Source: Escherichia phage ES19. Taken from it: a DNA stretch of 64,000 bases. This document shows positions 2,698 to 50,554 of the stretch, piece by piece. The notes under the pieces are model-generated. The model made no database searches. It saw nothing but the letters and a program-made list of their open reading frames with translations, and was not told the DNA's origin. Where the stretch lies: the sequence record MN508616.2. The stretch is one strand, 5' to 3'. Within the stretch, counting starts at the first letter, position 1. Each line of letters begins with the position of its first letter. The translations under genes were made by a program, and so were the position numbers.

Positions 2698-2850
2698 TTA
2701 AACCTCAATTGATACATTCATATTTAACTTGTAACAGTAATAAACCCCAACCTAAAATAATAGTTGGAATCATAAGAGGAACCGTTACACTATAGTATAT
2801 ACTTATTATAATCATCAAGATTAAAAGCAATGCTGTTATAATTTTGCTTT

Positions 2851-3102
2851 TCATTCCTTCTCTCTGATGATAATTACCTGATTTGGCTGCGCAGACTTTT
2901 TAGTTTCACCCGCAATTGACCAAATAAATGTAATAAACCAACCAATAATTGACCAGTTAAACAGTAAAGATGTGAAAAAGATTCCTACTGTCGATTTTGA
3001 CCCACGCATCAAAGCAATAAACCATGGAAGCATGTATATAATAATAGCCAACACACCTGAAACTAAAACCATAAAAATTGAACCTGCTACTAAAGTTTCC
3101 AT
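2851..3102 (-). CDS. imm: Imm superinfection immunity membrane protein
   Basis: 83-aa ORF with two hydrophobic helices (IFMVLVSGVLAIIIYMLPWFIALM; WSIIGWFITFIWSIAG); position next to gene 42. Confidence 0.8.
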   Translation of the reverse strand: METLVAGSIFMVLVSGVLAIIIYMLPWFIALMRGSKSTVGIFFTSLLFNWSIIGWFITFIWSIAGETKKSAQPNQVIIIREKE

Positions 3103-3109
3103 ATTTTCC

Positions 3110-3490
3110 TCACTTAGTCAAATTTTTTACACATGAATTATAAGAATTCACTACATACTCCATCGGAGCATTTTTACCAGTACGCCATTGGTAATTATTG
3201 GCCCAATTAGCCCAAAGCTCGGCGCAGTAGTTTTCAATTTTTTCTTCGCGTGTAATTACATCCGAATTACGATATGCTTGAGCAGATTCATCTGGACGAA
3301 TAGCTTCGTCAAAATTCGCCTGCATTTGTTCGACTGTTTGCTTTGGAGCTTCTTTATAACACTTGACATTAGGATTATAAAATTTGCTTGAACAGTTTAC
3401 AATTTTTCCTGCATCAGACTGATTTACTACCGGTCCTTGAGCTACACAACCAGTAAGACCTAATGCAATAACCAAAATAGCGATTTTCAT
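3110..3490 (-). CDS. hypothetical secreted/lipoprotein-like protein
   Basis: 126-aa ORF with N-terminal signal peptide MKIAILVIALGLTGC (lipobox-like LTGC); no recognised domain. Confidence 0.55.
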   Translation of the reverse strand: MKIAILVIALGLTGCVAQGPVVNQSDAGKIVNCSSKFYNPNVKCYKEAPKQTVEQMQANFDEAIRPDESAQAYRNSDVITREEKIENYCAELWANWANNYQWRTGKNAPMEYVVNSYNSCVKNLTK

Positions 3491-3774: not shown

Positions 3775-3804
3775 ATAGTACCATGGAAGAACATTCTTGT
3801 AAAC
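3775..3804 (-). promoter_or_regulatory. T4-type early promoter (-35 GTTTAC, -10 TACTAT)
   Basis: Minus strand: AT-rich UP region, GTTTAC, 18-bp spacer, TACTAT, then RBS/ATG at 3737; member of a repeated promoter family. Confidence 0.6.
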
Positions 3805-8813: not shown

Positions 8814-8846
8814 AATTTCCTCATTCAAGTTTTAGTGTAAATTATA

Positions 8847-8864
8847 AAGGGCCGAAGCCCTTTA
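8847..8864 (-). other. intercistronic RNA hairpin with UUCG tetraloop (between 45 and 44)
   Basis: Minus-strand AAAGGGC-UUCG-GCCCTTT overlapping the gp45 stop region. Confidence 0.5.
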
Positions 8865-9551
8865 TTAAAAATCGTGGGTAGAATCAGCTTCAAGAGCTAC
8901 CACATAATTCGCGTGTTCACCTTCAAATTTAGCAGCACCTTGTTTACCTTTTGCCCAGAGCAGAAGTTTATAATTTCCTGGTTGCATTTTCATATTTGCC
9001 ATATTGATAATGAAATTAAATGTATTTTCACCATCATAATCACCAAGAGTCAAAGAATATTTAACACGGGTCAGAGCAGAATCTTCTACTTTATTAAAAC
9101 CGTTAATTACGATTTTACCTTCTTTTACCGTGATAGCAATTGTATCAATTTGCAGACCACGAGATACACGCAACAGTTGTTGAAGGTCTTCAGCTTTAAT
9201 TTCAGTAACAACAGATGCTACCGGGAATGGAATTGGTTTATTAGGAGCAACTACTGTACTCGGATCGGCTGCTGGCCAAAAAATTGTTGAACGAGCATCA
9301 GCAATTTTAATATTTCCATCTTCTGACTGGGAAATTTCTGCGTCATCATTAACTAGAGACAGAATACCGAGAAAACCGTTCAAATCGTAAATTGCTACAT
9401 CAAAATCAATAACGTCAGAAATATTTGCTTCCGCATAAGTTGTACCATTAACTGCGCGAGTCATAATAAATTGACCGGATTTAAGCATAATACCGGAGTT
9501 AATAGTAGCGAAATTTTTAAGCAGAGCAGTAGTATCTTTAGACAGTTTCAT
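8865..9551 (-). CDS. 45: sliding clamp gp45
   Basis: 228-aa ORF MKLSKDTTALLKNFATINSGIMLKSGQFIMTRAVNGTTYAEANISD...; length and sequence match T4 gp45. Confidence 0.95.
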   Translation of the reverse strand: MKLSKDTTALLKNFATINSGIMLKSGQFIMTRAVNGTTYAEANISDVIDFDVAIYDLNGFLGILSLVNDDAEISQSEDGNIKIADARSTIFWPAADPSTVVAPNKPIPFPVASVVTEIKAEDLQQLLRVSRGLQIDTIAITVKEGKIVINGFNKVEDSALTRVKYSLTLGDYDGENTFNFIINMANMKMQPGNYKLLLWAKGKQGAAKFEGEHANYVVALEADSTHDF

Positions 9552-13395: not shown

Positions 13396-13556
13396 ATATC
13401 AAGAACCGTCATTGAAATGCAAAATAAAATTATTGAAATAAACCCATCTGGTGTGCTAAAGAAACCAATCCAGCATGCTCTAGTGAATAGATAAAATGCA
13501 AGAAAAAGTATCACATATCCAAGAAATATCATTATATCAAACTCCGTATAAAGCTA

Positions 13557-13574
13557 AAGGGCCGAAGCCCTTTA
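13557..13574 (-). other. intercistronic RNA hairpin with UUCG tetraloop
   Basis: Minus-strand AAAGGGC-UUCG-GCCCTTT overlapping the a-gt stop; identical to the hairpin at 8847. Confidence 0.5.
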
Positions 13575-14824: not shown

Positions 14825-14844
14825 TATAGGAGCCGAAGCTCCTA
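14825..14844 (-). other. intercistronic RNA hairpin with UUCG tetraloop
   Basis: Minus-strand ATAGGAGC-UUCG-GCTCCTAT. Confidence 0.45.
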
Positions 14845-15018
14845 TCCACATAATACGCCATACAGAGGCTCGTTAGAACTTTTAAATTTTATGCGCTTAT
14901 ATTTTATAGTTCCTTCTGCTTTAGCTTTATCATGAGACGCTTTAAAGAGTCTCATCATTTCCTCTTTAGAGGAACGAATTTTATTATAATCTATTTCAGA
15001 AGTCTGGGTGTTCATCTT

Positions 15019-28793: not shown

Positions 28794-28820
28794 TTTTGTT
28801 CCTCCGTAGTTGATAGTTGT

Positions 28821-28850
28821 ATAGTACCACAGAGGAATGGTCTTGTAAAC
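28821..28850 (-). promoter_or_regulatory. T4-type early promoter (-35 GTTTAC, -10 TACTAT)
   Basis: Same repeat family as 3775..3804; minus-strand GTTTACAAGACCATTCCTCTGTGGTACTAT. Confidence 0.55.
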
Positions 28851-28852
28851 CA

Positions 28853-29155
28853 CTAAAAGAAACTTCTTTCACAATTTTTTCCACTGAACCAAGCGCTCAC
28901 TGCTTTCTTAGTCTCAGGAGCAGTGTTATCCATAAACCATTCAAAAGCAGCCTTTTTATGATTCTGGAGGGCTTCTCGGGCTTTAATCTGCTCACGGTCT
29001 ATTAACACTAACATATGAGCCTTTCTTGTCACCAAGGGCTTCTTATGATTCTTGGAGTATTCCCAGTCATTTGTCCAACGCATTGTCGTTGCGAACTGAT
29101 GAACCGCGTCTTTAATTTTAGTTTCGTAAATTTCACGAGCCTTTGAGTATAACAT
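28853..29155 (-). CDS. hypothetical protein
   Basis: Start at MLYSKAREIY behind GGAGGTAGTG; 100 aa. Confidence 0.4.
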   Translation of the reverse strand: MLYSKAREIYETKIKDAVHQFATTMRWTNDWEYSKNHKKPLVTRKAHMLVLIDREQIKAREALQNHKKAAFEWFMDNTAPETKKAVSAWFSGKNCERSFF

Positions 29156-30312: not shown

Positions 30313-30340
30313 TAAAAAAAAAGGGAGCCCGAAGGCTCCC
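30313..30340 (-). terminator. intrinsic terminator (UUCG hairpin plus U-run)
   Basis: Minus strand GGGAGCC-UUCG-GGCTCCC followed by TTTTTTTTT, directly after the nucleotidyltransferase-like gene. Confidence 0.6.
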
Positions 30341-30342
30341 TA

Positions 30343-33849: not shown

Positions 33850-33879
33850 ATAGTATCACAGCTCAAATTGAAAGTAAAC
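33850..33879 (-). promoter_or_regulatory. T4-type early promoter (-35 GTTTAC, -10 TACTAT)
   Basis: Minus strand GTTTACTTTCAATTTGAGCTGTGATACTAT. Confidence 0.5.
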
Positions 33880-40484: not shown

Positions 40485-40543
40485 TTTATCCCTCCAAGTA
40501 ACTGTGAATATACTATCACAATTCTAGGAGAAAGTAAATAGCT

Positions 40544-41074
<531 letters not shown>

Positions 41075-42754: not shown

Positions 42755-43310
42755 ATTTTTCTAGTAATAAATCACTTTCAAAATTGGGATTTTCTACAAA
42801 TTTATCAAAAAGATCATCAACAATAGTTAAGATATTCTTTTTACTAAGAATACGTTTATTTTCATGCTTCGTTTCAGAATCAACTATAAGAGTAAAGAAA
42901 TATTTCTTGCCCTGAAATTTTACAGTAGTATCAATATAAAATAAATTTGACTTTTGTAAATTACGTTTAAACCATGCGTCACTTAAACTATAAACACCGA
43001 GATAATCAAAATCGTCGTTTAAATAACAAACCGTCCATTCAGGAGAAATGAAATCAGTAAATTCAACATCAAAATCACACGTCAATGAATGAATTGATTC
43101 AATACTGTTAATGAGTATTCCAGGACGTATTAAAGACTTTTTACCTCTAGAAAATCTTCCGGAAAGGCTTTCATCAGTTTCATATGAAGACCCCCAATAG
43201 TAATTACGTCCTTCTGCCATGCGTTTAAGAGCATTTAGTAATTGGTCTGGAACATCAACCTGTCTTTGAAACTCTTCAAACATTGAATTGAAATCACTTT
43301 GCATTTTCAT
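42702..43310 (-). CDS. hypothetical protein
   Basis: 202-aa ORF; start may be slightly downstream to reduce overlap. Confidence 0.4.
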   Translation of the reverse strand: MKMQSDFNSMFEEFQRQVDVPDQLLNALKRMAEGRNYYWGSSYETDESLSGRFSRGKKSLIRPGILINSIESIHSLTCDFDVEFTDFISPEWTVCYLNDDFDYLGVYSLSDAWFKRNLQKSNLFYIDTTVKFQGKKYFFTLIVDSETKHENKRILSKKNILTIVDDLFDKFVENPNFESDLLLEKFVKECREYVKAITIPSK

Positions 43311-43330
43311 TCCTATTTACTCCAAGTAAT

Positions 43331-43347
43331 AGGGGCCCGAAGCCCCT
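43331..43347 (-). other. intercistronic RNA hairpin with UUCG tetraloop
   Basis: Minus-strand AGGGGC-UUCG-GGCCCCT between two ORFs. Confidence 0.45.
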
Positions 43348-43352
43348 TATCA

Positions 43353-43946
43353 TTATTTCAGAGAATTAATATATTCCTGAACATCGGCAGAGGTAGTTTC
43401 AACCCCAGAAATATTACCATTAAAGGTTTCAACTCGAGCAAGAGTATCTTCAATATCAACCTTAGTCAGTGCTGCAATTTCAACTACATCATCAGCAGTA
43501 CTAATTCCAAGGGCATTCGCTGCACGAGTTTCACGGATATATTCCAATTTAACCGCAAGTTCTTGACGAGCATCATCTAACTCAACTACTTTCTTGGCGA
43601 TTTCAATTCGCATTTCAGCATAACCGTCAGCCTTAGTAGTCAACTGCTCAGCTGTTCGACGATATAGTAAACCGAGTTTAGCATGCATTGTTACATCTTG
43701 GCCTTCGGAAAGAAGTTTACGAATTTCACGCTCTTTTGATTCGGCCTGTCGATTCTTTTCGATAACAAGTTCACGAATACGTTTTTCTTCGTTAATAGAT
43801 TTAACAGAAGCAGTTTTTAGATCTTTAATTTTATCAAGTAGTTTTGCTGCTGCAGCAGTATACTGTTCTTCGACAGATAGATTTTTAGCCATAGCAGAAC
43901 CAAGTTTAGTGCGAATAAACTCAACAATTTTCTTCAGTGTGTTCAT
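43353..43946 (-). CDS. hypothetical coiled-coil protein (PspA/IM30-like architecture possible)
   Basis: 197-aa almost entirely helical, heptad-rich ORF; the similarity to PspA is only architectural. Confidence 0.4.
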
Positions 43947-44047
43947 AGTATTTCCTTAGGTTAATTGAGATTTAAAATCCGTAGGAGTATAATACTCTAT
44001 CGTCAAATTATAGGCTCATAATATCTCAATCATGAGCCTGCGTAAAC

Positions 44048-44311
44048 TTATTTCATATTATTGAAATATTCTTCTGCGATTTCGTCGTTATCATGGTAAA
44101 CTTTAGAAGACAGTTTAACATAACCTTCTGCTGTGAACATATTAATCACAACTTTTACAGTATACCACTGACCGTCTTCATTACCCATTACTGCGTAAGT
44201 TTCAAACATCGGATGATCAGGACCGATAACTTTAATATCATTCACTGTACGACCGAAATCTTCTGAAACGCATTTCATAAAGAAGTTGAACAGTTCGCCG
44301 TAATTATCCAT
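44048..44311 (-). CDS. hypothetical protein
   Basis: Start at MDNYGELFNFFMK behind GGAGAATGAA and an early promoter. Confidence 0.45.
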   Translation of the reverse strand: MDNYGELFNFFMKCVSEDFGRTVNDIKVIGPDHPMFETYAVMGNEDGQWYTVKVVINMFTAEGYVKLSSKVYHDNDEIAEEYFNNMK

Positions 44312-44354
44312 TTCATTCTCCAAGTTGTTTTCTGTATCAGTAGTTGATAGTTGT

Positions 44355-44384
44355 ATAGTACCATGGAAGAACAGAGATGTAAAC
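44355..44384 (-). promoter_or_regulatory. T4-type early promoter (-35 GTTTAC, -10 TACTAT)
   Basis: Near-identical copy of the 3775..3804 promoter. Confidence 0.55.
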
Positions 44385-44540
44385 AGTTTTGTGAAAAAAT
44401 TTTTAGGGAATTCTAGGGCAGGGATGGGCAATTAAAGGATAGGATAATATATTATAAAGGGTATAAACTAAATGATGCCTAGAGAGGTCCAGAAAGGCCT
44501 AGATACCAAAAAGCCCTATCATTTAGATAGGGATTTAAAA

Positions 44541-45104
44541 TTATTTACCTAGTTTACTTATTATAGCTTCTGCAGCAGCTTTTAGCTTAGATGCAGTGTT
44601 AATACGATTTTTAATTTCAGTATACGCATCGCCAAGAACATCAAGGCTATCAGAATAAACACTTACACTATTGCGTTCGCTATTTGAAATAGAACCTTTA
44701 GTTTTGCGGTCAAAATCGGTGTACACGTCTTGAAGATCGCGGGCTGCCTTCTTTGCATCATCCAATGCATCAAGAGCTTTATTCAAAGCATTAACGTATT
44801 TTTTAGTGTCGAACATATTCTTAGAAATTTTAACAGGTGCGCGTTCAGGAGTAGCTAACACAGATTTAGGAACCTGAGCGCCAGATGCCAATTTCTTAGA
44901 AATTTTGAAAAATGCTTTATTGAATTTATTTTCTTGACTCATTGTAAAAGAACTATTATCGATGTTGTACATTTCAATAGCTTTAGCTTTCCACTTAAGA
45001 AAATCGCCGCGGTCTTTTGGGTCCAATTGGAAGAATACTTTAGTAAGATCTGCTTCAGATGGTAATTTTGCTGCTTCGGTTAAAAATTCGGCATAGGTTT
45101 TCAT
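44541..45104 (-). CDS. internal protein candidate (IPIII-like) with capsid-targeting sequence
   Basis: N terminus MKTYAEFLTEA matches the T-even capsid-targeting sequence with an LxE prohead-protease site; basic, Ala/Lys-rich body. Confidence 0.6.
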   Translation of the reverse strand: MKTYAEFLTEAAKLPSEADLTKVFFQLDPKDRGDFLKWKAKAIEMYNIDNSSFTMSQENKFNKAFFKISKKLASGAQVPKSVLATPERAPVKISKNMFDTKKYVNALNKALDALDDAKKAARDLQDVYTDFDRKTKGSISNSERNSVSVYSDSLDVLGDAYTEIKNRINTASKLKAAAEAIISKLGK

Positions 45105-45194
45105 TTAAAATCCTTGAAATAATTTATCGGTTGGTTATTAATTATTTATTACTTTGTTACTATCCGTAACAGCGTTATCCGAGTGATTCAAACT

Positions 45195-45222
45195 AAAAAG
45201 CCCCAACCTTTCGGTCGGGGCT
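45195..45222 (-). terminator. intrinsic terminator
   Basis: Minus-strand GCCCCGACC-GAAA-GGTTGGGGC followed by TTTTT, after the IP gene ending at 45230. Confidence 0.6.
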
Positions 45223-45229
45223 AAGAATG

Positions 45230-45703
45230 TCATTTGATTTGTTTAGCAGACCAAATGCGGTCTTTAATAATTTTTTGGATGTCTTCAACATACTCAAGAG
45301 AGTGAACATGTGGATTATCTTTGAAACTATAAGCACGGGCTAACTTTTGGCCTTCGGTTTTGATTACTAAAAGCTCTTTAAGGATAGCTTCATATTTAGC
45401 GATAATTCCTTTAACGATATTTTTTTCTTGTGCCGCTTTAGGATCTGCTTTAGGAGCAGGTTTACCCGAAGCCTTTGCAAAAGCAGCGCCAGTAGCAACT
45501 AAACTTTTCCAGGCCATACTAACTGCATTTCCCGTAAATCCTTCCGCTTTCATGTCGCGTGCAAACTGGAATCGTGATTCATCAGAAGCATCTTTATAGG
45601 AATATTTACCCGCGGCAATGGCAGCTTTTGCAACAGCTTGAATTTCGGTGCTAGATGCTTCATTTAACACCGCTTCATTTAAAAATTGAGTATATGATTT
45701 CAT
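45230..45703 (-). CDS. internal protein candidate with capsid-targeting sequence
   Basis: Start at MKSYTQFLNEA (157 aa); late promoter TATAAATA upstream; the first 59 codons of the tracked ORF run across the terminator and promoter. Confidence 0.55.
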   Translation of the reverse strand: MKSYTQFLNEAVLNEASSTEIQAVAKAAIAAGKYSYKDASDESRFQFARDMKAEGFTGNAVSMAWKSLVATGAAFAKASGKPAPKADPKAAQEKNIVKGIIAKYEAILKELLVIKTEGQKLARAYSFKDNPHVHSLEYVEDIQKIIKDRIWSAKQIK

Positions 45704-45742
45704 CTTATTTCCTGTTTTAATTTGTAGATTTAATATACTAAT

Positions 45743-45750
45743 ATTTATAC
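45743..45750 (-). promoter_or_regulatory. late promoter (TATAAATA)
   Basis: Minus-strand TTGGTATAAATATT about 40 nt upstream of the IP start at 45703. Confidence 0.5.
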
Positions 45751-45751
45751 C

Positions 45752-45779
45752 AAAAAGCCCCAACCTTTCGGTCGGGGCT
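45752..45779 (-). terminator. intrinsic terminator (exact repeat of 45195..45222)
   Basis: Identical hairpin plus U-run at the 3' end of the non-coding region. Confidence 0.6.
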
Positions 45780-45830
45780 AAGCCTTGCGGCAACCTTGTC
45801 GGGGTTCCACCTGCTAAGGCAAGTGTTTGT

Positions 45831-45922
45831 ACGAAACGCCGGGATTCGAACCCGGTTATTAAGTAGTTGACGCTACTCAATATTTTTAAAAGGCCATATC
45901 TCGACCATATCCGAACGTTCCG
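45831..45922 (-). ncRNA. tRNA-like element (acceptor stem plus canonical T-arm, aberrant body)
   Basis: Minus strand: 7-bp acceptor CGGAACG/CGTTTCG and T-arm CCGGG-TTCGAAT-CCCGG; no regular D or anticodon arm; lies in a 300-nt ORF-free interval. Confidence 0.3.
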
Positions 45923-46086
45923 TCAAAAACGCTACTCGGCTTACGGCAAAGATATTTCCTCGAATCGATAATTCGGTGCGCCGTTTCTGCTGTGATAGTA
46001 AAGAGCCAGAACACAGTAAAACTGTGGGAGGAAACTATACTCCAGGGAACATCAGTCCGACGACTTACCGGTAGCGACCCGGTTTC

Positions 46087-46437
46087 TTAATATTCTTTTA
46101 AAGAATCAATATATTCACGGCGTTTACGCCACAAATCAATTGCTTCATACGCGGATTCAGCATTTCGAATTAGCCGGCATTTATGTAAAGACTTATGATT
46201 TTGATATTGTGTAGATAACGGAATTGTATCTAAAAGGTCTTTACGATCAAAATATTCGTAACCATCTAAACCAAATGAACGATTTTTGAGAAATTGCCAA
46301 TGACCATATTCGTTTTCGACATAAACATAATCTGCATGCTGATAAAGCAAATTAATTACACGTTCAGAAATAACAGTATCATTATGATTAAAATAGAATG
46401 TTAAATCATGAACTACTAAATAAACATTACCTTTCAT
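46087..46437 (-). CDS. hypothetical protein
   Basis: 116-aa ORF immediately downstream of tRNA-Arg; start preceded by GTGAGGAAAAT. Confidence 0.5.
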   Translation of the reverse strand: MKGNVYLVVHDLTFYFNHNDTVISERVINLLYQHADYVYVENEYGHWQFLKNRSFGLDGYEYFDRKDLLDTIPLSTQYQNHKSLHKCRLIRNAESAYEAIDLWRKRREYIDSLKEY

Positions 46438-46455
46438 ATTTTCCTCACTTATAAT

Positions 46456-46531
46456 TGGTCGAGGCAGTAGGGATCGAACCTACGACCTAGGACTTAGAAG
46501 GTCCTTGCTCTTCCTTCTGAGCTATGCCCCG
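46456..46531 (-). tRNA. tRNA-Arg (anticodon TCT)
   Basis: Hand-folded cloverleaf: acceptor CGGGGCA/TGCCTCG, anticodon loop CTTCTAA, T-loop GGTTCGATC; CCA encoded. Confidence 0.8.
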
Positions 46532-46535
46532 TAAT

Positions 46536-46611
46536 TGGGGTGACCGATGGGAGTCGAACCCATGACTACGAGAATCACAATCTCGAGTTCTACCAACTGA
46601 ACTACGGCCAC
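46536..46611 (-). tRNA. tRNA-His (anticodon GTG)
   Basis: Acceptor GTGGCCG/CGGTCAC, anticodon stem CGAGA/TCTCG with loop TTGTGAT, T-loop GGGTTCGACTCCC, discriminator C, CCA encoded. Confidence 0.75.
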
Positions 46612-46725
46612 ATTAATACCTACTCCAACAATCAAGATGTCTTCACACGAAATTAAGAGAAGAGTGATCAGTTCAACCCCTATAATCGCGTCAAGTAGAT
46701 ATTAATGTGACAGTTGTCACAAATT

Positions 46726-46800
46726 TGGCGGACGTGATAGGATTCGAACCTATAACCAATCGCTTAACAGGCGATCGCTCTGCCATTGAGCTACACATCC
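46726..46800 (-). tRNA. tRNA-Asn (anticodon GTT)
   Basis: Acceptor GGATGTG/CACGTCC, anticodon stem ATCGC/GCGAT with loop CTGTTAA, T-loop AGGTTCGAATCCT; CCA encoded. Confidence 0.75.
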
Positions 46801-46805
46801 AAATT

Positions 46806-46891
46806 GGTGGGGAGTGGTGGAGTCGAACCACCCGAGTCGCAATGACAATGGATTTACAGTCCACACCGCTACCTCTACGGGATAACTCCCC
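46806..46891 (-). tRNA. tRNA-Tyr (anticodon GTA), long variable arm
   Basis: Acceptor GGGGAGT/ACTCCCC, anticodon loop CTGTAAA, long variable arm, T-loop GGTTCGACTCC; CCA encoded. Confidence 0.75.
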
Positions 46892-46900
46892 AAATTAATT

Positions 46901-46975
46901 TGGTGGCCCTGGGTGGAATTGAACCACCATCTGGCGATTATGAGTCGCTTGCTTGAACCTTCCAGCTACAGGGCC
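46901..46975 (-). tRNA. tRNA with CAT anticodon (Ile by analogy with T4 tRNA-Ile, otherwise Met)
   Basis: Acceptor GGCCCTG/CAGGGCC, anticodon stem AGCGA/TCGCC region with loop CTCATAA, T-loop GGTTCAATTCC; CCA encoded. Confidence 0.7.
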
Positions 46976-46976
46976 T

Positions 46977-47052
46977 TGGTGCTGATTGACGGAATCGAAC
47001 CGCCGACCTTCTCATTACAAGTGAGTTGCTCTACCTACTGAGCTAAATCAGC
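46977..47052 (-). tRNA. tRNA-Thr (anticodon TGT)
   Basis: Acceptor GCTGATT/AATCAGC, anticodon loop CTTGTAA, T-loop GGTTCGATTCC; CCA encoded. Confidence 0.8.
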
Positions 47053-47057
47053 AAAAC

Positions 47058-47147
47058 TGGCGGAGGCGATAGGATTTGAACCTATGAGTCGCCGGAGCGA
47101 CTGCCGGTTTTCAAGACCGGTGCATTAAACCACTCTGCCACGCCTCC
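47058..47147 (-). tRNA. tRNA-Ser (anticodon TGA), long variable arm
   Basis: Acceptor GGAGGCG/CGCCTCC, anticodon stem CCGGT/ACCGG with loop CTTGAAA, long variable arm, T-loop GGTTCAAATCC; CCA encoded. Confidence 0.8.
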
Positions 47148-47149
47148 AG

Positions 47150-47223
47150 TCTCCGTGGCAGGATTTGAACCTACGACATTCTGCTCCCAAAGCAGACGCT
47201 CTACCAAACTGAGCTACACGGAG
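47150..47223 (-). tRNA. tRNA-Pro (anticodon TGG)
   Basis: Acceptor CTCCGTG/CACGGAG, anticodon stem TCTGC/GCAGA with loop TTTGGGA, T-loop GGTTCAAATCC; CCA not encoded. Confidence 0.8.
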
Positions 47224-47233
47224 TAAATTAAAT

Positions 47234-47307
<74 letters not shown>

Positions 47308-47312
47308 AAATT

Positions 47313-47399
47313 TGGTGCGAGAAGTGGGACTCGAACCCACAAGGAAATCATTCCGCAGCATTTTAAGTGCTGTGCCTTTACCAATTTGGCCATTCTCGC
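47313..47399 (-). tRNA. tRNA-Leu (anticodon TAA), long variable arm
   Basis: Acceptor GCGAGAA/TTCTCGC, anticodon stem CAGCA/TGCTG with loop CTTAAAA, long variable arm, T-loop GGTTCGAGTCC; CCA encoded. Confidence 0.8.
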
Positions 47400-47400
47400 G

Positions 47401-47473
47401 CTGGGAATAAAGGACTCGAACCTTTGCATCCTGGAATCAAAATCCAGTGCCTTACCAACTTGGCTAATTCCCA
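47401..47473 (-). tRNA. tRNA-Gln (anticodon TTG)
   Basis: Acceptor TGGGAAT/ATTCCCA, anticodon stem CTGGA/TCCAG with loop TTTTGAT, T-loop GGTTCGAGTCC; abuts tRNA-Leu with a 1-nt spacer; CCA not encoded. Confidence 0.8.
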
Positions 47474-47570
47474 ATTATTAACAAAGGCTCTTAAGCAAGA
47501 ACCCTTGATGATAGAGGGTATTAATCAGTGCGATATGAGTTAATAATAACAAATAATTCTTAAAGCATAT

Positions 47571-47858
47571 TTACCATTTATAATAATACATATTTACGAT
47601 GCATTCAAGACCCAAAGGATTCTTGAAAATATCATATTCAAGAGGACCTTTTTCTGTTTCAATAAAGAAATCAAAATTTACTGTATTAAATTTACGTTCT
47701 TCCTTCACTAATTTAACTTGAGAAGATGAACGGTCAATGTAAACCTTTTCAACTTCAAAACATGTTAAAATGCCATAATCATCAATCAAAGCTTTAGCCG
47801 CGTCTTGATCATATTTATATCCATTTTCAATGGATGATACTTTCGCATAAAGAATCAT
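47571..47858 (-). CDS. hypothetical protein
   Basis: 95-aa ORF upstream of the tRNA cluster. Confidence 0.4.
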   Translation of the reverse strand: MILYAKVSSIENGYKYDQDAAKALIDDYGILTCFEVEKVYIDRSSSQVKLVKEERKFNTVNFDFFIETEKGPLEYDIFKNPLGLECIVNMYYYKW

Positions 47859-47860
47859 TA

Positions 47861-48259
47861 TCAGCCTTCATCAACAATAGTGTGAGTATTAGCATTTACG
47901 ATTTGCCACCAATCAAAGCGATTAGAATCCATCGGTTTGTTTTCATTTTCTTTGATAATGTCACGGAGTTCATCTTCAGAGAATGCTTTAGCAATTAAAT
48001 CGGTATACCCACCACGGGGATAATAATTATCACCTGCAAACAAAAGGAAATTTACCTTCCCGGAAGCAACATATGCTTCCTTAGGATACTTGTTTCCTGC
48101 GTGGTCAACCACTTCAATATAACGGTAAGGAATATCGGTTCTTTCAGCCCATTGCCATGCCGCCGCAGGGGAATCGAAAGCATCTACACCTAAACGATTA
48201 TCTTCATCTTTAGACGGATTATTTTCGTAATCCGCATATACATAATATTCAACGTTCAT
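47861..48259 (-). CDS. hypothetical protein
   Basis: 132-aa ORF. Confidence 0.45.
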   Translation of the reverse strand: MNVEYYVYADYENNPSKDEDNRLGVDAFDSPAAAWQWAERTDIPYRYIEVVDHAGNKYPKEAYVASGKVNFLLFAGDNYYPRGGYTDLIAKAFSEDELRDIIKENENKPMDSNRFDWWQIVNANTHTIVDEG

Positions 48260-48444
48260 TATTCACCTTTAGAAATTTTATCCATAACAATAGCAATTAA
48301 ACCAATTAAAAATGCTACTACAAGTGAAAACACATTTTCTGCTGTAGTCAATAATCCACATATAAATCCAACAAACATTGAAAAACTAAAAGCGGAAGCA
48401 GAAATTGCAATAGCAACATTTCGAATTAATTCACAACGTTTCAT
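48259..48444 (-). CDS. hypothetical small membrane protein
   Basis: 61-aa ORF MKRCELIRNVAIAISASAFSFSMFVGFICGLL...; own early promoter. Confidence 0.45.
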   Translation of the reverse strand: MKRCELIRNVAIAISASAFSFSMFVGFICGLLTTAENVFSLVVAFLIGLIAIVMDKISKGE

Positions 48445-48472
48445 TTTATTCTCCTCAGTAGTAGATAGGGTA

Positions 48473-48503
48473 ATAGTATCACTACCCTATCTAAAAGTAA
48501 ACT
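48473..48503 (-). promoter_or_regulatory. T4-type early promoter with palindrome-flanked -10
   Basis: Minus strand GTTTAC...GATAGGGTAGTGATACTATTACCCTATC; -10 TACTAT sits inside an inverted repeat. Confidence 0.55.
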
Positions 48504-48736
48504 TATTTTTTACGAAAAATTGATTTATTTTCTGCTGCCCATTTTTCAATAACTGCAGCAGGACCAGTAACAACAATTTTATCACCGTAATCTTCTGCGG
48601 CGAGTTGACCGAAATTATCTAATGCATCACGAAGAACTCCATGAGGCATTTCACCCATTTTATCTTTCTTGCCAGTGTAAATAAACTCAACTTTTACATC
48701 AGCAGTTTCAGCAATAAATTCTTGGTAAGTTTTCAT
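48503..48736 (-). CDS. internal protein candidate (IPI-like) with capsid-targeting sequence
   Basis: Start at MKTYQEFIAETADV (77 aa), a textbook T-even capsid-targeting N terminus; own early promoter. Confidence 0.6.
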   Translation of the reverse strand: MKTYQEFIAETADVKVEFIYTGKKDKMGEMPHGVLRDALDNFGQLAAEDYGDKIVVTGPAAVIEKWAAENKSIFRKK

Positions 48737-48770
48737 TTTGATTTCCATTTGGTTTTGTTTTGATAGGGTA

Positions 48771-48800
48771 ATAGTATCACAACTAAAACCCTATGTAAAC
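48771..48800 (-). promoter_or_regulatory. T4-type early promoter with palindrome-flanked -10
   Basis: Minus strand GTTTACATAGGGTTTTAGTTGTGATACTATTACCCTATC. Confidence 0.55.
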
Positions 48801-48812
48801 AACTTTGTGAAA

Positions 48813-49070
48813 TTATTTTAAATCTTCTAATCGTTTCTTCATCTTAGAACCATTTTTAGCAATTTCTCCTGCATCGGAGCATAATGCTAAAAGTGCTTTA
48901 ACTTTAGTTTGGTCTCCTTTAAAAGATGAAGGATCGACCGCAGCAGCAAGTTCTTTAATACGAGAGAAAAGACGCTCAGCTTCAGCTAAAGCCATTCCAA
49001 GCTTTACTTCCATACCGTGGGAAGATTCAGTGATAGTAGTTTTTGTAGCAAACTCTTTGAAAGTTTTCAT
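48813..49070 (-). CDS. hypothetical small protein, possible internal protein
   Basis: 85-aa ORF starting MKTFKEFATKT (capsid-targeting-like but lacks the Glu at position 10); own early promoter. Confidence 0.4.
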   Translation of the reverse strand: MKTFKEFATKTTITESSHGMEVKLGMALAEAERLFSRIKELAAAVDPSSFKGDQTKVKALLALCSDAGEIAKNGSKMKKRLEDLK

Positions 49071-49101
49071 TTTTATTTTCCTAATTAATTTTGATGAGGT
49101 A

Positions 49102-49131
49102 ATAGTATCACTACCTCATCAGTATGTAAAC
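49102..49131 (-). promoter_or_regulatory. T4-type early promoter with palindrome-flanked -10
   Basis: Minus strand GTTTACATACTGATGAGGTAGTGATACTATTACCTCATC; palindrome arms differ from 48473 but stay complementary. Confidence 0.55.
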
Positions 49132-49143
49132 AACTTTGTGAAA

Positions 49144-49828
<685 letters not shown>

Positions 49829-49829
<1 letters not shown>

Positions 49830-50554
49830 TATAGTACCTTTAGTGTATTTTTAATTTTAGAAAAAAGTTCTTCAAGAGAACCATCGTTTGTAATTACTAA
49901 ATCGCCATCACGAATTGGCAATCCAGCTTCTGTAATATGTGTATCATTGGATTTTTGACCAGGACGAACTACATGAATTACTGTAGCACCCATCGCCCTA
50001 GCCGCATCCATTTCATGATCTTGACGGGTATCAGGAACGATATAATAATCATAACCTGAGTTAAATTTATCAAGATAATCTAAAGCAAATAATTTTACCC
50101 AGTACATGCGGTCGAAGTTATTAACAATCAAATCCGTACCTAGGGCTTGCATCAGACGACGGACTGACCATTGATCTTCAATATTATTTATAACGTCAGT
50201 AATTTTGTTAAATGCTACGAAATTAACTGATTCTTTTCCTTCGTCATCAAAAACAAACACACCTTTAATTGGGCTTTTACCATTAAGATAGCAAAATGCT
50301 TGTTCCATAATCATAATTACTTCTAATTTAGTCAAATTCAAATTAGTCTCACGATCATAGTCAATTCCTTCAAACTCTCTACGAGTTAAGCAAGGATAGT
50401 CAGTGTTTGCTGCAAATACACCCCATGCATAAGCCAATGCATCTTTAATAGGACCAGCAAGTTGATATTTAACTGCAGAATAATTATTCATGATAAAATC
50501 TGCAGTAGTATCTTTTCCACTACGCTTTACACCACTTAAAAAGATTAGTTTCAT
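49829..50554 (-). CDS. 1: deoxynucleoside monophosphate kinase gp1
   Basis: 241-aa ORF with P-loop GVKRSGKDT; length matches T4 gp1. Confidence 0.85.

Follow-up and report, generated by a model that had tools for sequence, protein, structure and literature searches.

Why should the early promoters of a phage lie inside inverted repeats, and why should the arms of these repeats differ from one promoter to the next and yet stay complementary? This question is raised by a short segment (positions 48460-49135) of the 64,000-nucleotide stretch of Escherichia phage ES19 DNA (record MN508616.2) that is called the window below. A sequence-only reading of the segment had noticed three successive promoters with a common -10 core, each flanked by an inverted repeat, and had proposed selection on a hairpin or on a site for a dimeric protein. 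The window comes from a Tequatrovirus (a T4-like phage) and the segment corresponds to an internal-protein (IP) locus whose genes are encoded on the minus strand. Over ∼1.2 kb surrounding the three promoters, the sequence is 100% identical in the Tequatrovirus genomes Pinarejo, Yersinia phage PYPS2T, and vB_EcoM_G9062. An annotated relative has the minus-strand order gene 1, 57A, 57B, two IP genes, trna.4, trna.3, trna.2, and the tRNA cluster, and the arrangement found in the window is kept in 166 of 740 related genomes. Both ORFs between the conserved flanks share a MKT(F/Y)(K/Q)EF capsid-targeting leader and, because they match PHROG families of internal head or virion proteins, the promoters are placed within what is, judging from its gene content, the ipI-type IP locus of a T4-like phage. 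Internal proteins are injected anti-defense factors; GmrSD is blocked by IPI, and IPIII is required on some hosts.

Promoter-hairpin elements of the window

Each of the three linkers, named elements 1 to 3 here, contains a putative early promoter on the minus strand with the layout GTTTAC-N18-TACTAT, TG at the extended -10 position, and the identical block GTGATACTAT, in line with the common core described earlier. As had also been reported, an inverted repeat overlaps every one of them, perfect at elements 1 and 3 and shorter or imperfect, depending on the register, at element 2 (Table 1). The arms of elements 1 and 3 directly adjoin the 10-nt GTGATACTAT block. Comparison of these two copies shows differences at arm positions 1, 5, and 6, and all three are compensatory (A-T to T-A, A-T to G-C, and G-C to A-T), which bears out the observation that the arms differ between copies but remain complementary. 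In length, these two perfect repeats rank first among all perfect inverted repeats with short loops in the 64-kb window. Shuffles of 64 kb not infrequently contain a 10-bp repeat; two perfect repeats in the same register at the same promoter motif are far beyond chance (∼2e-6 per site from a base-composition estimate). The sense-RNA folds of elements 1, 2, and 3 have predicted energies of -19.8, -18.1, and -20.5 kcal/mol (z = -3.6, -2.95, and -4.65, respectively).

Table 1. Coordinates of the promoter-hairpin elements and neighboring genes in the window.
Feature	Position	Strand	Description
Element 1 (copy 1)	48445..48502	-	linker between second IP gene (cassette b) and trna.4 homologue
Element 1 promoter	-35 48497-48502; GTGATACTAT 48473-48482	-	upstream TAA stop abuts -35
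Element 1 arms	5' TAGATAGGGTA 48483-48493; 3' TACCCTATCTA 48462-48472	-	11 bp perfect, 10-nt loop
Element 2 (copy 2)	48737..48812	-	linker between the two IP genes
Element 2 promoter	-35 48795-48800; GTGATACTAT 48771-48780	-	
Element 2 outer arms	ATAGGGT 48788-48794 / ACCCTAT 48763-48769	-	7 bp, displaced 5 nt upstream; inner UAGU/ACUA
Element 2 alternative repeat	48755-48775 / 48782-48802	-	21 nt, 81% complementary (17 bp imperfect), shifted register
Element 3 (copy 3)	49071..49143	-	linker between 57B/Acb1-like gene and first IP gene (cassette a)
Element 3 promoter	-35 GTTTAC 49126-49131; extended -10 GTGATACTAT 49102-49111	-	
Element 3 arms	5' TGATGAGGTA 49112-49121; 3' TACCTCATCA 49092-49101	-	10 bp perfect
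Fourth palindromic early promoter	44012..44047	-	-35 GTTTAC 44042-44047; -10 TATTAT 44018-44023
Fourth promoter arms	AGGCTCAT 44032-44039 / ATGAGCCT 44012-44019	-	-17.6 kcal/mol, z -4.2
IP cassette a	48813..49070	-	85 aa, N terminus MKTFKEF, capsid-targeting leader; phrog_3499 internal head protein, 1e-49
IP cassette b	48503..48736	-	77 aa from MKTYQEFIAE start at 48736; phrog_8111 internal virion protein, 1.5e-52
57B/Acb1-like gene	49144..49602	-	'RNA ligase'/Acb1 in relative; conserved flank upstream of locus
trna.4 homologue	48259..48444	-	conserved flank downstream of locus

The intergenic spacers at the elements are 58-76 nt long and hold a stop codon, the promoter, a ribosome-binding site, and a start codon. 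At element 1, the ribosome-binding site GGAGAATAAAA (48448-48458) is a perfect match to the strong RegB cleavage consensus GG*AGRAYARAA. A fourth palindromic promoter at 44018-44047 on the minus strand, which the sequence-only reading had left out, resembles element 1 in that an upstream stop codon, here that of an e.8-like gene, abuts the -35. Among the ∼20 strong minus-strand early promoters in the window, at least 7 bp of pairing around the -10 was found in the three elements and the 44018 promoter only, with 3-6 bp in the rest. The family members at 3775, 28821, 30260, 33850, and 44355 have at most 3 bp around the -10, which agrees with the earlier statement that they have no palindrome. 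An Rfam covariance-model scan of positions 43000-50000 returned tRNAs and chance-level matches, with none at the elements.

The sense RNA stem runs into the '-10 loop', where two G.U pairs and one U-A pair join the GUG of the extended -10 to the UAU within TACTAT, resulting in an extended stem of 13-14 bp with an AUAC tetraloop; the antisense strand cannot form an equivalent. Compared with the sense strand, antisense folding loses 4-7 kcal/mol at three of the four elements in the window; for copy 2, the two strands fold about equally well. T4 early transcripts begin ∼7 nt after the -10, a distance that Liebig and Ruger in 1989 and Wilkens and Ruger in 1996 are said to have found. The predicted start therefore lies inside the 3' arm and the promoter's own transcript cannot form the hairpin. 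For this reason, the suggestion that the structure might fold in the promoters' own 5' leaders is not supported, as such a leader does not hold both arms. We infer instead that the hairpin is confined to read-through RNA from the gene upstream and, with a distance of 0-12 nt between that gene's stop codon and the -35, that it would occupy the 3' untranslated part of that cistron.

A promoter embedded in a hairpin, with the structure present only in upstream-initiated RNA, is established for the T4 genes e, soc, 49, and I-TevI. If this logic applied to the IP locus, the read-through RNA would be untranslated downstream, and the RNA started at the embedded promoter, which has no 5' arm, would be translated. 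It apparently does apply elsewhere in the window, at the denV and 28821 promoters, where the promoter spacer pairs with the ribosome-binding site of denV (-18.3 kcal/mol, z -3.55) or with the downstream ribosome-binding site (-19.7 kcal/mol, z -3.4), and both resemble the T4 class. The denV palindrome had been taken for a simpler member of the same class as the three elements; its TGTGA/TCACA arms pair over only 5 bp, which is background, and they belong to this different, larger hairpin that sequesters the ribosome-binding site. At the IP-locus elements, by contrast, neither the ribosome-binding site nor the start codon is paired in the stem and the ribosome-binding site is left free. Furthermore, the embedded promoters of e, soc, 49, and I-TevI are late promoters whose stem sequesters the ribosome-binding site or AUG, whereas the IP-locus promoters are of the early type. 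A translational switch is, in our estimate, very unlikely at this locus.

Selection on pairing

A scan of IMG/VR for GTTTAC-N14-GTGATACTAT returned 112 loci with 91-93 unique elements, many of which have a hairpin centered on the -10 with quite different arms. Examples of such arm pairs are GGTGTAGGAGC/GCTCCTACAC, TGGTAGAAGAC/GTCTTCTACCA, GGTGTAGGATG/CATCTTACACC, CCGGAAGT/ACTTCCGG, AAGGCTATGGTA/TACTATAGCCTT, and GGGTAGTAGT/ACTATTACCC. The search was widened to any promoter of the form GTTTAC-N15-TGnTAnnnT among the matches listed, which include contigs that in many cases are possibly not T4-like and that served solely as additional sequence for this generic promoter search. A promoter was counted as hairpin-positive if it had at least 8 Watson-Crick pairs around the -10 and a loop of at most 14 nt, with all mismatch types treated equally; the loop limit was tightened to this value because an earlier stem count with very long loops had a high background. 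By this measure, 51 of the 328 unique promoters among the matches listed were hairpin-positive, as compared to 8.5 (maximum 16) with shuffled flanks and 9.7 (maximum 17) when the 5' and 3' halves were re-paired between elements. Following the addition of annotated IP loci, the count was 56 of 340 unique promoters among the matches listed, with 43 distinct stems, where ∼9 hairpin-positive promoters are expected.

Pairing was also counted at fixed register in an alignment of 91 sequences that had not been selected for hairpins, with 500 shuffles and slid controls. Register-0 pairing occupied 46.3% of cells versus 41.3 ± 1.2% in the shuffles, none of which was as high (0/500), and it exceeded every slid control (35.5-41.9%). 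The register-0 covariation score was 0.248 versus 0.183. When 16 orthologous linkers of six phages were given to RNAalifold, no consensus fold emerged; this is because the elements use at least three 5'-arm registers, so that covariation fails when it is read column by column. The hairpin is selected as a structure, not as a sequence. Approximately 85% of early promoters of the same type are without any hairpin, and it is therefore not needed for promoter function.

The strand on which pairing is selected was read from the mismatches. Isolated mismatches at variable stem positions, with at least two Watson-Crick pairs on both sides, were counted, and the stems were found to contain 13 G.T, 1 A.C, and 8 other mismatches (binomial p ∼0.001 for G.T versus A.C). 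When related elements are discounted, about ten independent G.T events are left. Since transitions from a Watson-Crick pair yield G.T and A.C equally, the bias toward G.T indicates that pairing is selected on the sense strand. This strand could be either read-through RNA or single-stranded non-template DNA, and the tolerance of G.T is equally compatible with both. The polarity of the arms (G:C of 139:20 in the 5' arm and C:G of 128:19 in the 3' arm) was considered as proof of strand specificity and rejected, as a G-rich 5' arm and a C-rich 3' arm are unchanged by reverse complementation. The polarity is explained by the stretch lying downstream of the -10, which is G-poor in all T4 early promoters (12% G in the hairpin-less ones).

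The same data bear on the proposed dimeric protein. The perfect dyads centered on the -10 would suit a promoter-overlapping operator to which a dimeric protein binds in a sequence-specific manner. However, the arms are almost unconstrained beyond complementarity, the register of the dyad moves by 2-5 nt between elements, and the mismatch spectrum is strand-asymmetric, which is unexpected for a symmetric duplex site. Because the arms are kept as pairs and not as sequences, an operator of this type is ruled out as a sequence-specific site; we regard it as extremely unlikely, close to refuted by the arm diversity and the mismatch asymmetry. Of the two targets of selection first proposed, the hairpin is thus retained and the dimeric site is not.

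Cassette junctions and a proposed linker role

The interval between 57B and trna.4 varies in content among related phages. It contains only ipI in T4, Ip5 and ipI in RB14, two other IPs in Shigella phage SH_GT, three IPs in Mosigvirus ESCO47, two IP-like ORFs without annotation in Dhakavirus JS98, and no IP gene in Klebsiella phage Roth77. A promoter-hairpin is found at every junction in these six phages, with arms that differ and stay complementary. Conservation of the arms as a pair had been named beforehand by the sequence-only reading as the comparison on which its proposal should be judged, and complementarity is indeed kept across Tequatrovirus, Mosigvirus, Dhakavirus, and the Klebsiella phage. 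In ESCO47, the position of the hairpin relative to the -10 is kept despite a different -10 sequence.

The exceptions to arm-pair conservation look like recombinant hybrids. T4 has an identical copy of element 3 upstream of ipI and an element of the same class as element 2 downstream of it, and the T4 element upstream of trna.4 switches from the left half of copy 2 to the right half of copy 1 within their common GTGATACTATTACCCTATC. Hybrids with mismatched arms were found in IMG/VR (ATAGGGTA...TACCTCATCA) and in ESCO47 (GGGCTCTAGTG...TACCCTATC, -11 kcal/mol). A hybrid in RB14 has regained pairing via a compensatory A-to-G change and G.U pairs (ATGGGGT/ATCTCAT). T4 conserves the 44018 promoter between its e.8 and e.7 genes; e.7 is missing from the window, where homology to T4 stops immediately past the 3' arm of this element, so that the indel junction lies at the element edge. 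In these alignments, hybrid elements and indel breakpoints fall inside the elements or at their edge. The T4 evolution paper of Srikant et al., which was checked for promoter-mediated recombination, offered general context only.

Hybrids such as these leave room for a reading without function, in which repeated recombination or template switching among promoter copies generates the palindromes as a by-product, and they hitch-hike with the cassettes. Broken-stem hybrids exist and persist, and the registers vary among elements, as this reading would have it. Nonetheless, it is difficult to reconcile with the compensatory changes, the presence of 43 unrelated stems at one position, a hairpin count above that of the re-paired controls, and the bias of G.T over A.C, which together argue for purifying selection on pairing. 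We therefore deem it improbable that the palindromes have no function of their own.

Selection could instead act on DNA, with a non-template hairpin or a cruciform that exposes or conceals the -10 and thereby tunes promoter activity, or that attracts structure-specific nucleases such as endonuclease VII and serves as a recombination hot spot. Several observations are consistent with this: the loop in the commonest register is exactly the extended -10, the hairpin keeps its place where the -10 sequence differs, as in ESCO47, breakpoints map to the elements, and G.T is also the least destabilizing DNA mismatch, so that the strand bias is compatible with a hairpin in the non-template strand. A cruciform, however, requires both strands, and the other strand would hold A.C mismatches. 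In addition, stems of 10-14 bp with loops of 4-10 nt extrude poorly, the 5' arm is duplex while polymerase is bound, and most promoters that look equally strong have no repeat. The placement of the arms in the spacer and discriminator has a simple explanation in compaction as well. A DNA-level element is consequently unlikely in our view, if less so than an operator.

The explanation we hold to be probable, with some reserve, is that the elements are the T-even version of the PeSL-type (promoter-early stem-loop) cassette linkers, which would act as insulators in read-through RNA and as homology for recombination. The stem-loop would be built from the sequence-free parts of the promoter, namely the spacer, which precedes the extended -10, and the discriminator and start region, which follow it, with transcription from each promoter beginning inside the 3' arm. 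In read-through RNA, the hairpin could then insulate neighboring cassettes by attenuating or pausing the read-through, by giving the upstream message an exonuclease-resistant 3' end, or both, and every cassette would have its own expression signals. The conserved promoter core (∼30-70 bp) would meanwhile serve as homology with which the T4 recombination machinery may delete, duplicate, or exchange IP genes. Linkers of this kind allow IP genes to be swapped with independent expression, which is of relevance to host-range evolution and phage engineering.

How insulation might be achieved is constrained by what follows the stem. TTTT was found in 0 of 56 tails, the 10 nt past the stem are A-rich, and a terminator scan of the window found canonical terminators elsewhere and none at the elements. 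Based on the missing T-run and the empty scan, the elements are not canonical intrinsic terminators, and classical intrinsic termination at the T-even elements appears unlikely from their sequence. The hairpin might cause pausing or attenuation, assist Rho on the C/A-rich tail, or protect the 3' end of the upstream message. The last of these gains some color from the predicted RegB consensus at element 1, where a cut at GGAGAATAAAA would leave an IP message ending just past the hairpin.

A bolder reading is that the T-even hairpins, rather than having any terminator role, form a switch through which promoter use depends on upstream transcription or on whether the DNA is single-stranded. The grounds offered for it are the lack of a U-tract, a loop that is exactly the extended -10, and strand-specific selection. 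In one version, the switch would be a hairpin in non-template-strand DNA, loosely like the hairpin promoters of phage N4; in the other, a structure in read-through RNA would mark polycistronic versus cassette-initiated transcripts for decay by RegB or RNase E. We consider a switch of either type quite unlikely. If it were true, the published 'promoter-terminator' label would be wrong for the T-even class.

Comparison with known systems

Elements of this kind have been described before, which the sequence-only reading did not recognize. Repoila, Tetart, Bouet, and Krisch (EMBO J 13:4181, 1994) reportedly found most IP ORFs to be bordered on their 5' and 3' sides by a sequence of ∼70 bp. This repeat is said to combine an early promoter of T4 with an inverted repeat that overlaps it. 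According to the portion of that work relayed in PMC2839356 and PMC4122927, such elements were present in the two IP loci. As far as the relayed portion goes, the 1994 repeats come from the same locus (ipI, from 57B to trna.4), the same phage group, and the same element, and shuffling of IP cassettes was proposed for them; nothing substantive in it differs from the window, and copies 3 and 2 have identical or near-identical counterparts in T4. The elements are thus of an already published kind and the present observation is a rediscovery.

PeSLs were defined in RB49/phi1 by Arbiol et al. 2010 (PMC2839356) as a strong promoter and a stem-loop in one of five positions, overlap with the -10 included. 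They are located between a stop codon and a ribosome-binding site, are concentrated in hyperplastic regions, and were proposed to act both as a terminator/attenuator, that is an expression insulator, and as a recombination linker for cassette shuffling. The evidence in PMC2839356 comprises promoter and terminator reporters, with termination for one G/C-rich phi1 stem, and cassette mini-circles. The same paper treats the T-even IP elements as analogues, not homologues, of the RB49/phi1 PeSLs, with T4 early promoters and weaker AT-rich stems. PeSLs were later described for the PST/T4 pair as well (Comeau et al. 2014, PMC4122927), where the promoter consensus is TTTACW-N17-TAYWAT, a pattern that the window elements fit.

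The window elements share with PeSLs a strong early promoter, predicted here to be of the sigma-70 type, and a stem-loop between stop codon and ribosome-binding site, which in the window straddles the -10, one of the placements allowed. Further points of likeness are the hyperplastic locus with adjacent variable genes, a G-rich 5' arm with a C-rich 3' arm, and junctions of indels, replacements, and recombination that coincide with the elements in our comparisons. In contrast, most stem-loops in the PST figure (figure 3 of PMC4122927) lie just upstream of the promoter, and terminator activity has been demonstrated for the phi1 stem only, whereas the window elements have no T-run. The intrinsic terminators of T4 likewise place a stable intergenic RNA hairpin right after a stop codon. 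Those found in the window (for example, 45779-45756 and 45222-45199) have G/C-rich stems, tetraloops, and a T-run, and differ in this from the IP elements, which are without a U-tract.

An analogy to integron attC sites, drawn in PMC2839356, extends to small single-gene cassettes and to imperfect palindromes that conserve structure and not sequence. Unlike attC sites, the IP linkers involve no integrase, exchange being thought to proceed by general homologous recombination on the promoter core, and each linker has its own promoter.

Set against this literature, the additions made here are modest: a quantification of strand-specific selection on the stem, and the observation that the T-even versions have no terminator-type T-run. 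The quantification, with its 43 stems, G.T bias, and absence of T-runs, may go beyond Repoila 1994, and the sequences of the T-even class do not suggest the terminator function that the literature assumes for it.

Conservation and folding of the promoter-hairpin linkers

Part of the linker upstream of the trna.4 homologue, in the T4-like internal protein (IP) locus, is conserved in Klebsiella and Raoultella phages. More than 100 records of such phages match the locus over only 73 nt (48413-48485), with 93% identity; the matching stretch runs from the 3' half of the promoter-hairpin through the trna.4 leader into the first part of trna.4. Because the match is confined to these 73 nt, the linker is conserved more than the adjacent cassettes.

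For an alignment of 16 linkers from six phages, RNAalifold predicted no consensus structure. When folded individually, every linker in the alignment formed a strong hairpin, and the position of the 5' arm with respect to the fixed promoter varied among at least three registers. A conserved structure whose 5' arm shifts in register is missed by column-based covariation tools.

In the record of phage JS98 (EF469154.1), the 648 nt gap between 57B and trna.4 (locus positions 2746-3393) appears as intergenic. The gap contains two unannotated IP-like ORFs, MKSYKEFLTEA... and MKTYQEFIKES..., the first of which starts immediately at the 57B stop codon. One promoter-hairpin element precedes the second ORF and another precedes trna.4.

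In the window, the ribosome-binding site next to element 1, the linker between the second IP gene and trna.4, matches the strong RegB cleavage consensus. It lies ∼6 nt past the hairpin (48448-48458, minus strand), and the predicted RegB cut position is another ∼5 nt downstream. The ribosome-binding sites of the two IP genes are GGAA/AGGA, without GGAG.

A fourth palindromic promoter and terminator-type hairpins

A palindrome also encloses a fourth promoter, at 44012-44047. Its T4 counterpart lies between e.8 and e.7 (T4 locus 305-360) and has the arms ATAGGCTnAT/ATGAGCCTAT, the "n" being present in the T4 reference sequence. The window lacks e.7, and its similarity to T4 ends where the 3' arm ends.

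Promoter and hairpin features of the window
Feature	Position	Strand	Location	Method
Fourth palindrome-embedded promoter, arms AGGCTCAT/ATGAGCCT	44012-44047	-	between e.8-like and e.6-like genes	
denV early promoter within 17-bp RNA hairpin	40485-40545	-		RNA folding
Early promoter 28821-28850 with spacer/ribosome-binding-site pairing	28800-28865	-		RNA folding
Two identical 24-nt terminator hairpins, AGCCCCGACCGAAAGGTTGGGGCT + T-run	45756-45779, 45199-45222	-		terminator scan
Terminator-like hairpin CCCTATC-taaat-GATAGGG + T-run	44514-44532	-		terminator scan
Perfect G/C-rich hairpins, 8-9 bp	8844-8865, 13555-13574, 14826-14845, 30322-30341			inverted-repeat search

The 24-nt terminator hairpins lie one upstream of each member of a paralogous pair of IP-like genes (phrog_2280; leaders MKSYTQF/MKTYAEF). 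This arrangement looks like a second IP locus, in which the cassette linkers are true intrinsic terminators followed by late-promoter-like TATAAATA instead of promoter-hairpins. The two words of the single terminator-like hairpin also make up arms of element 1 and element 2, where their order is reversed; the hairpin may have been left behind when a deletion joined two linkers, or may have arisen by chance. The G/C-rich hairpins have the plus-strand loop cgaa, read on the minus (sense) strand as a UUCG tetraloop, and resemble the terminator or stabiliser hairpins typical of T4.

Spacer pairing with ribosome-binding sites

At denV, the hairpin (-18.3 kcal/mol, z -3.55; none of 200 shuffles folded as well) is formed between the promoter spacer, CUUUCUCC...AAUUGUGA, and the denV ribosome-binding site, UCACAGUU...GGAGGG. 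No palindrome surrounds the -10 region of the early promoter at 28821-28850, but the spacer of this promoter, UCCUCUGUGGU, pairs with ACUACGGAGGA, a stretch that takes in the ribosome-binding site downstream (-19.7 kcal/mol, z -3.4). RNA folding gave no structure for the sibling promoters at 33850, 44355, 3775, and 30260.

With the denV fold, the ribosome-binding site would be sequestered in read-through RNA and free in RNA initiated at the embedded promoter. This logic is the same as that of the T4 genes e, soc, 49, and I-TevI; the denV hairpin differs from these in that it embeds an early promoter.
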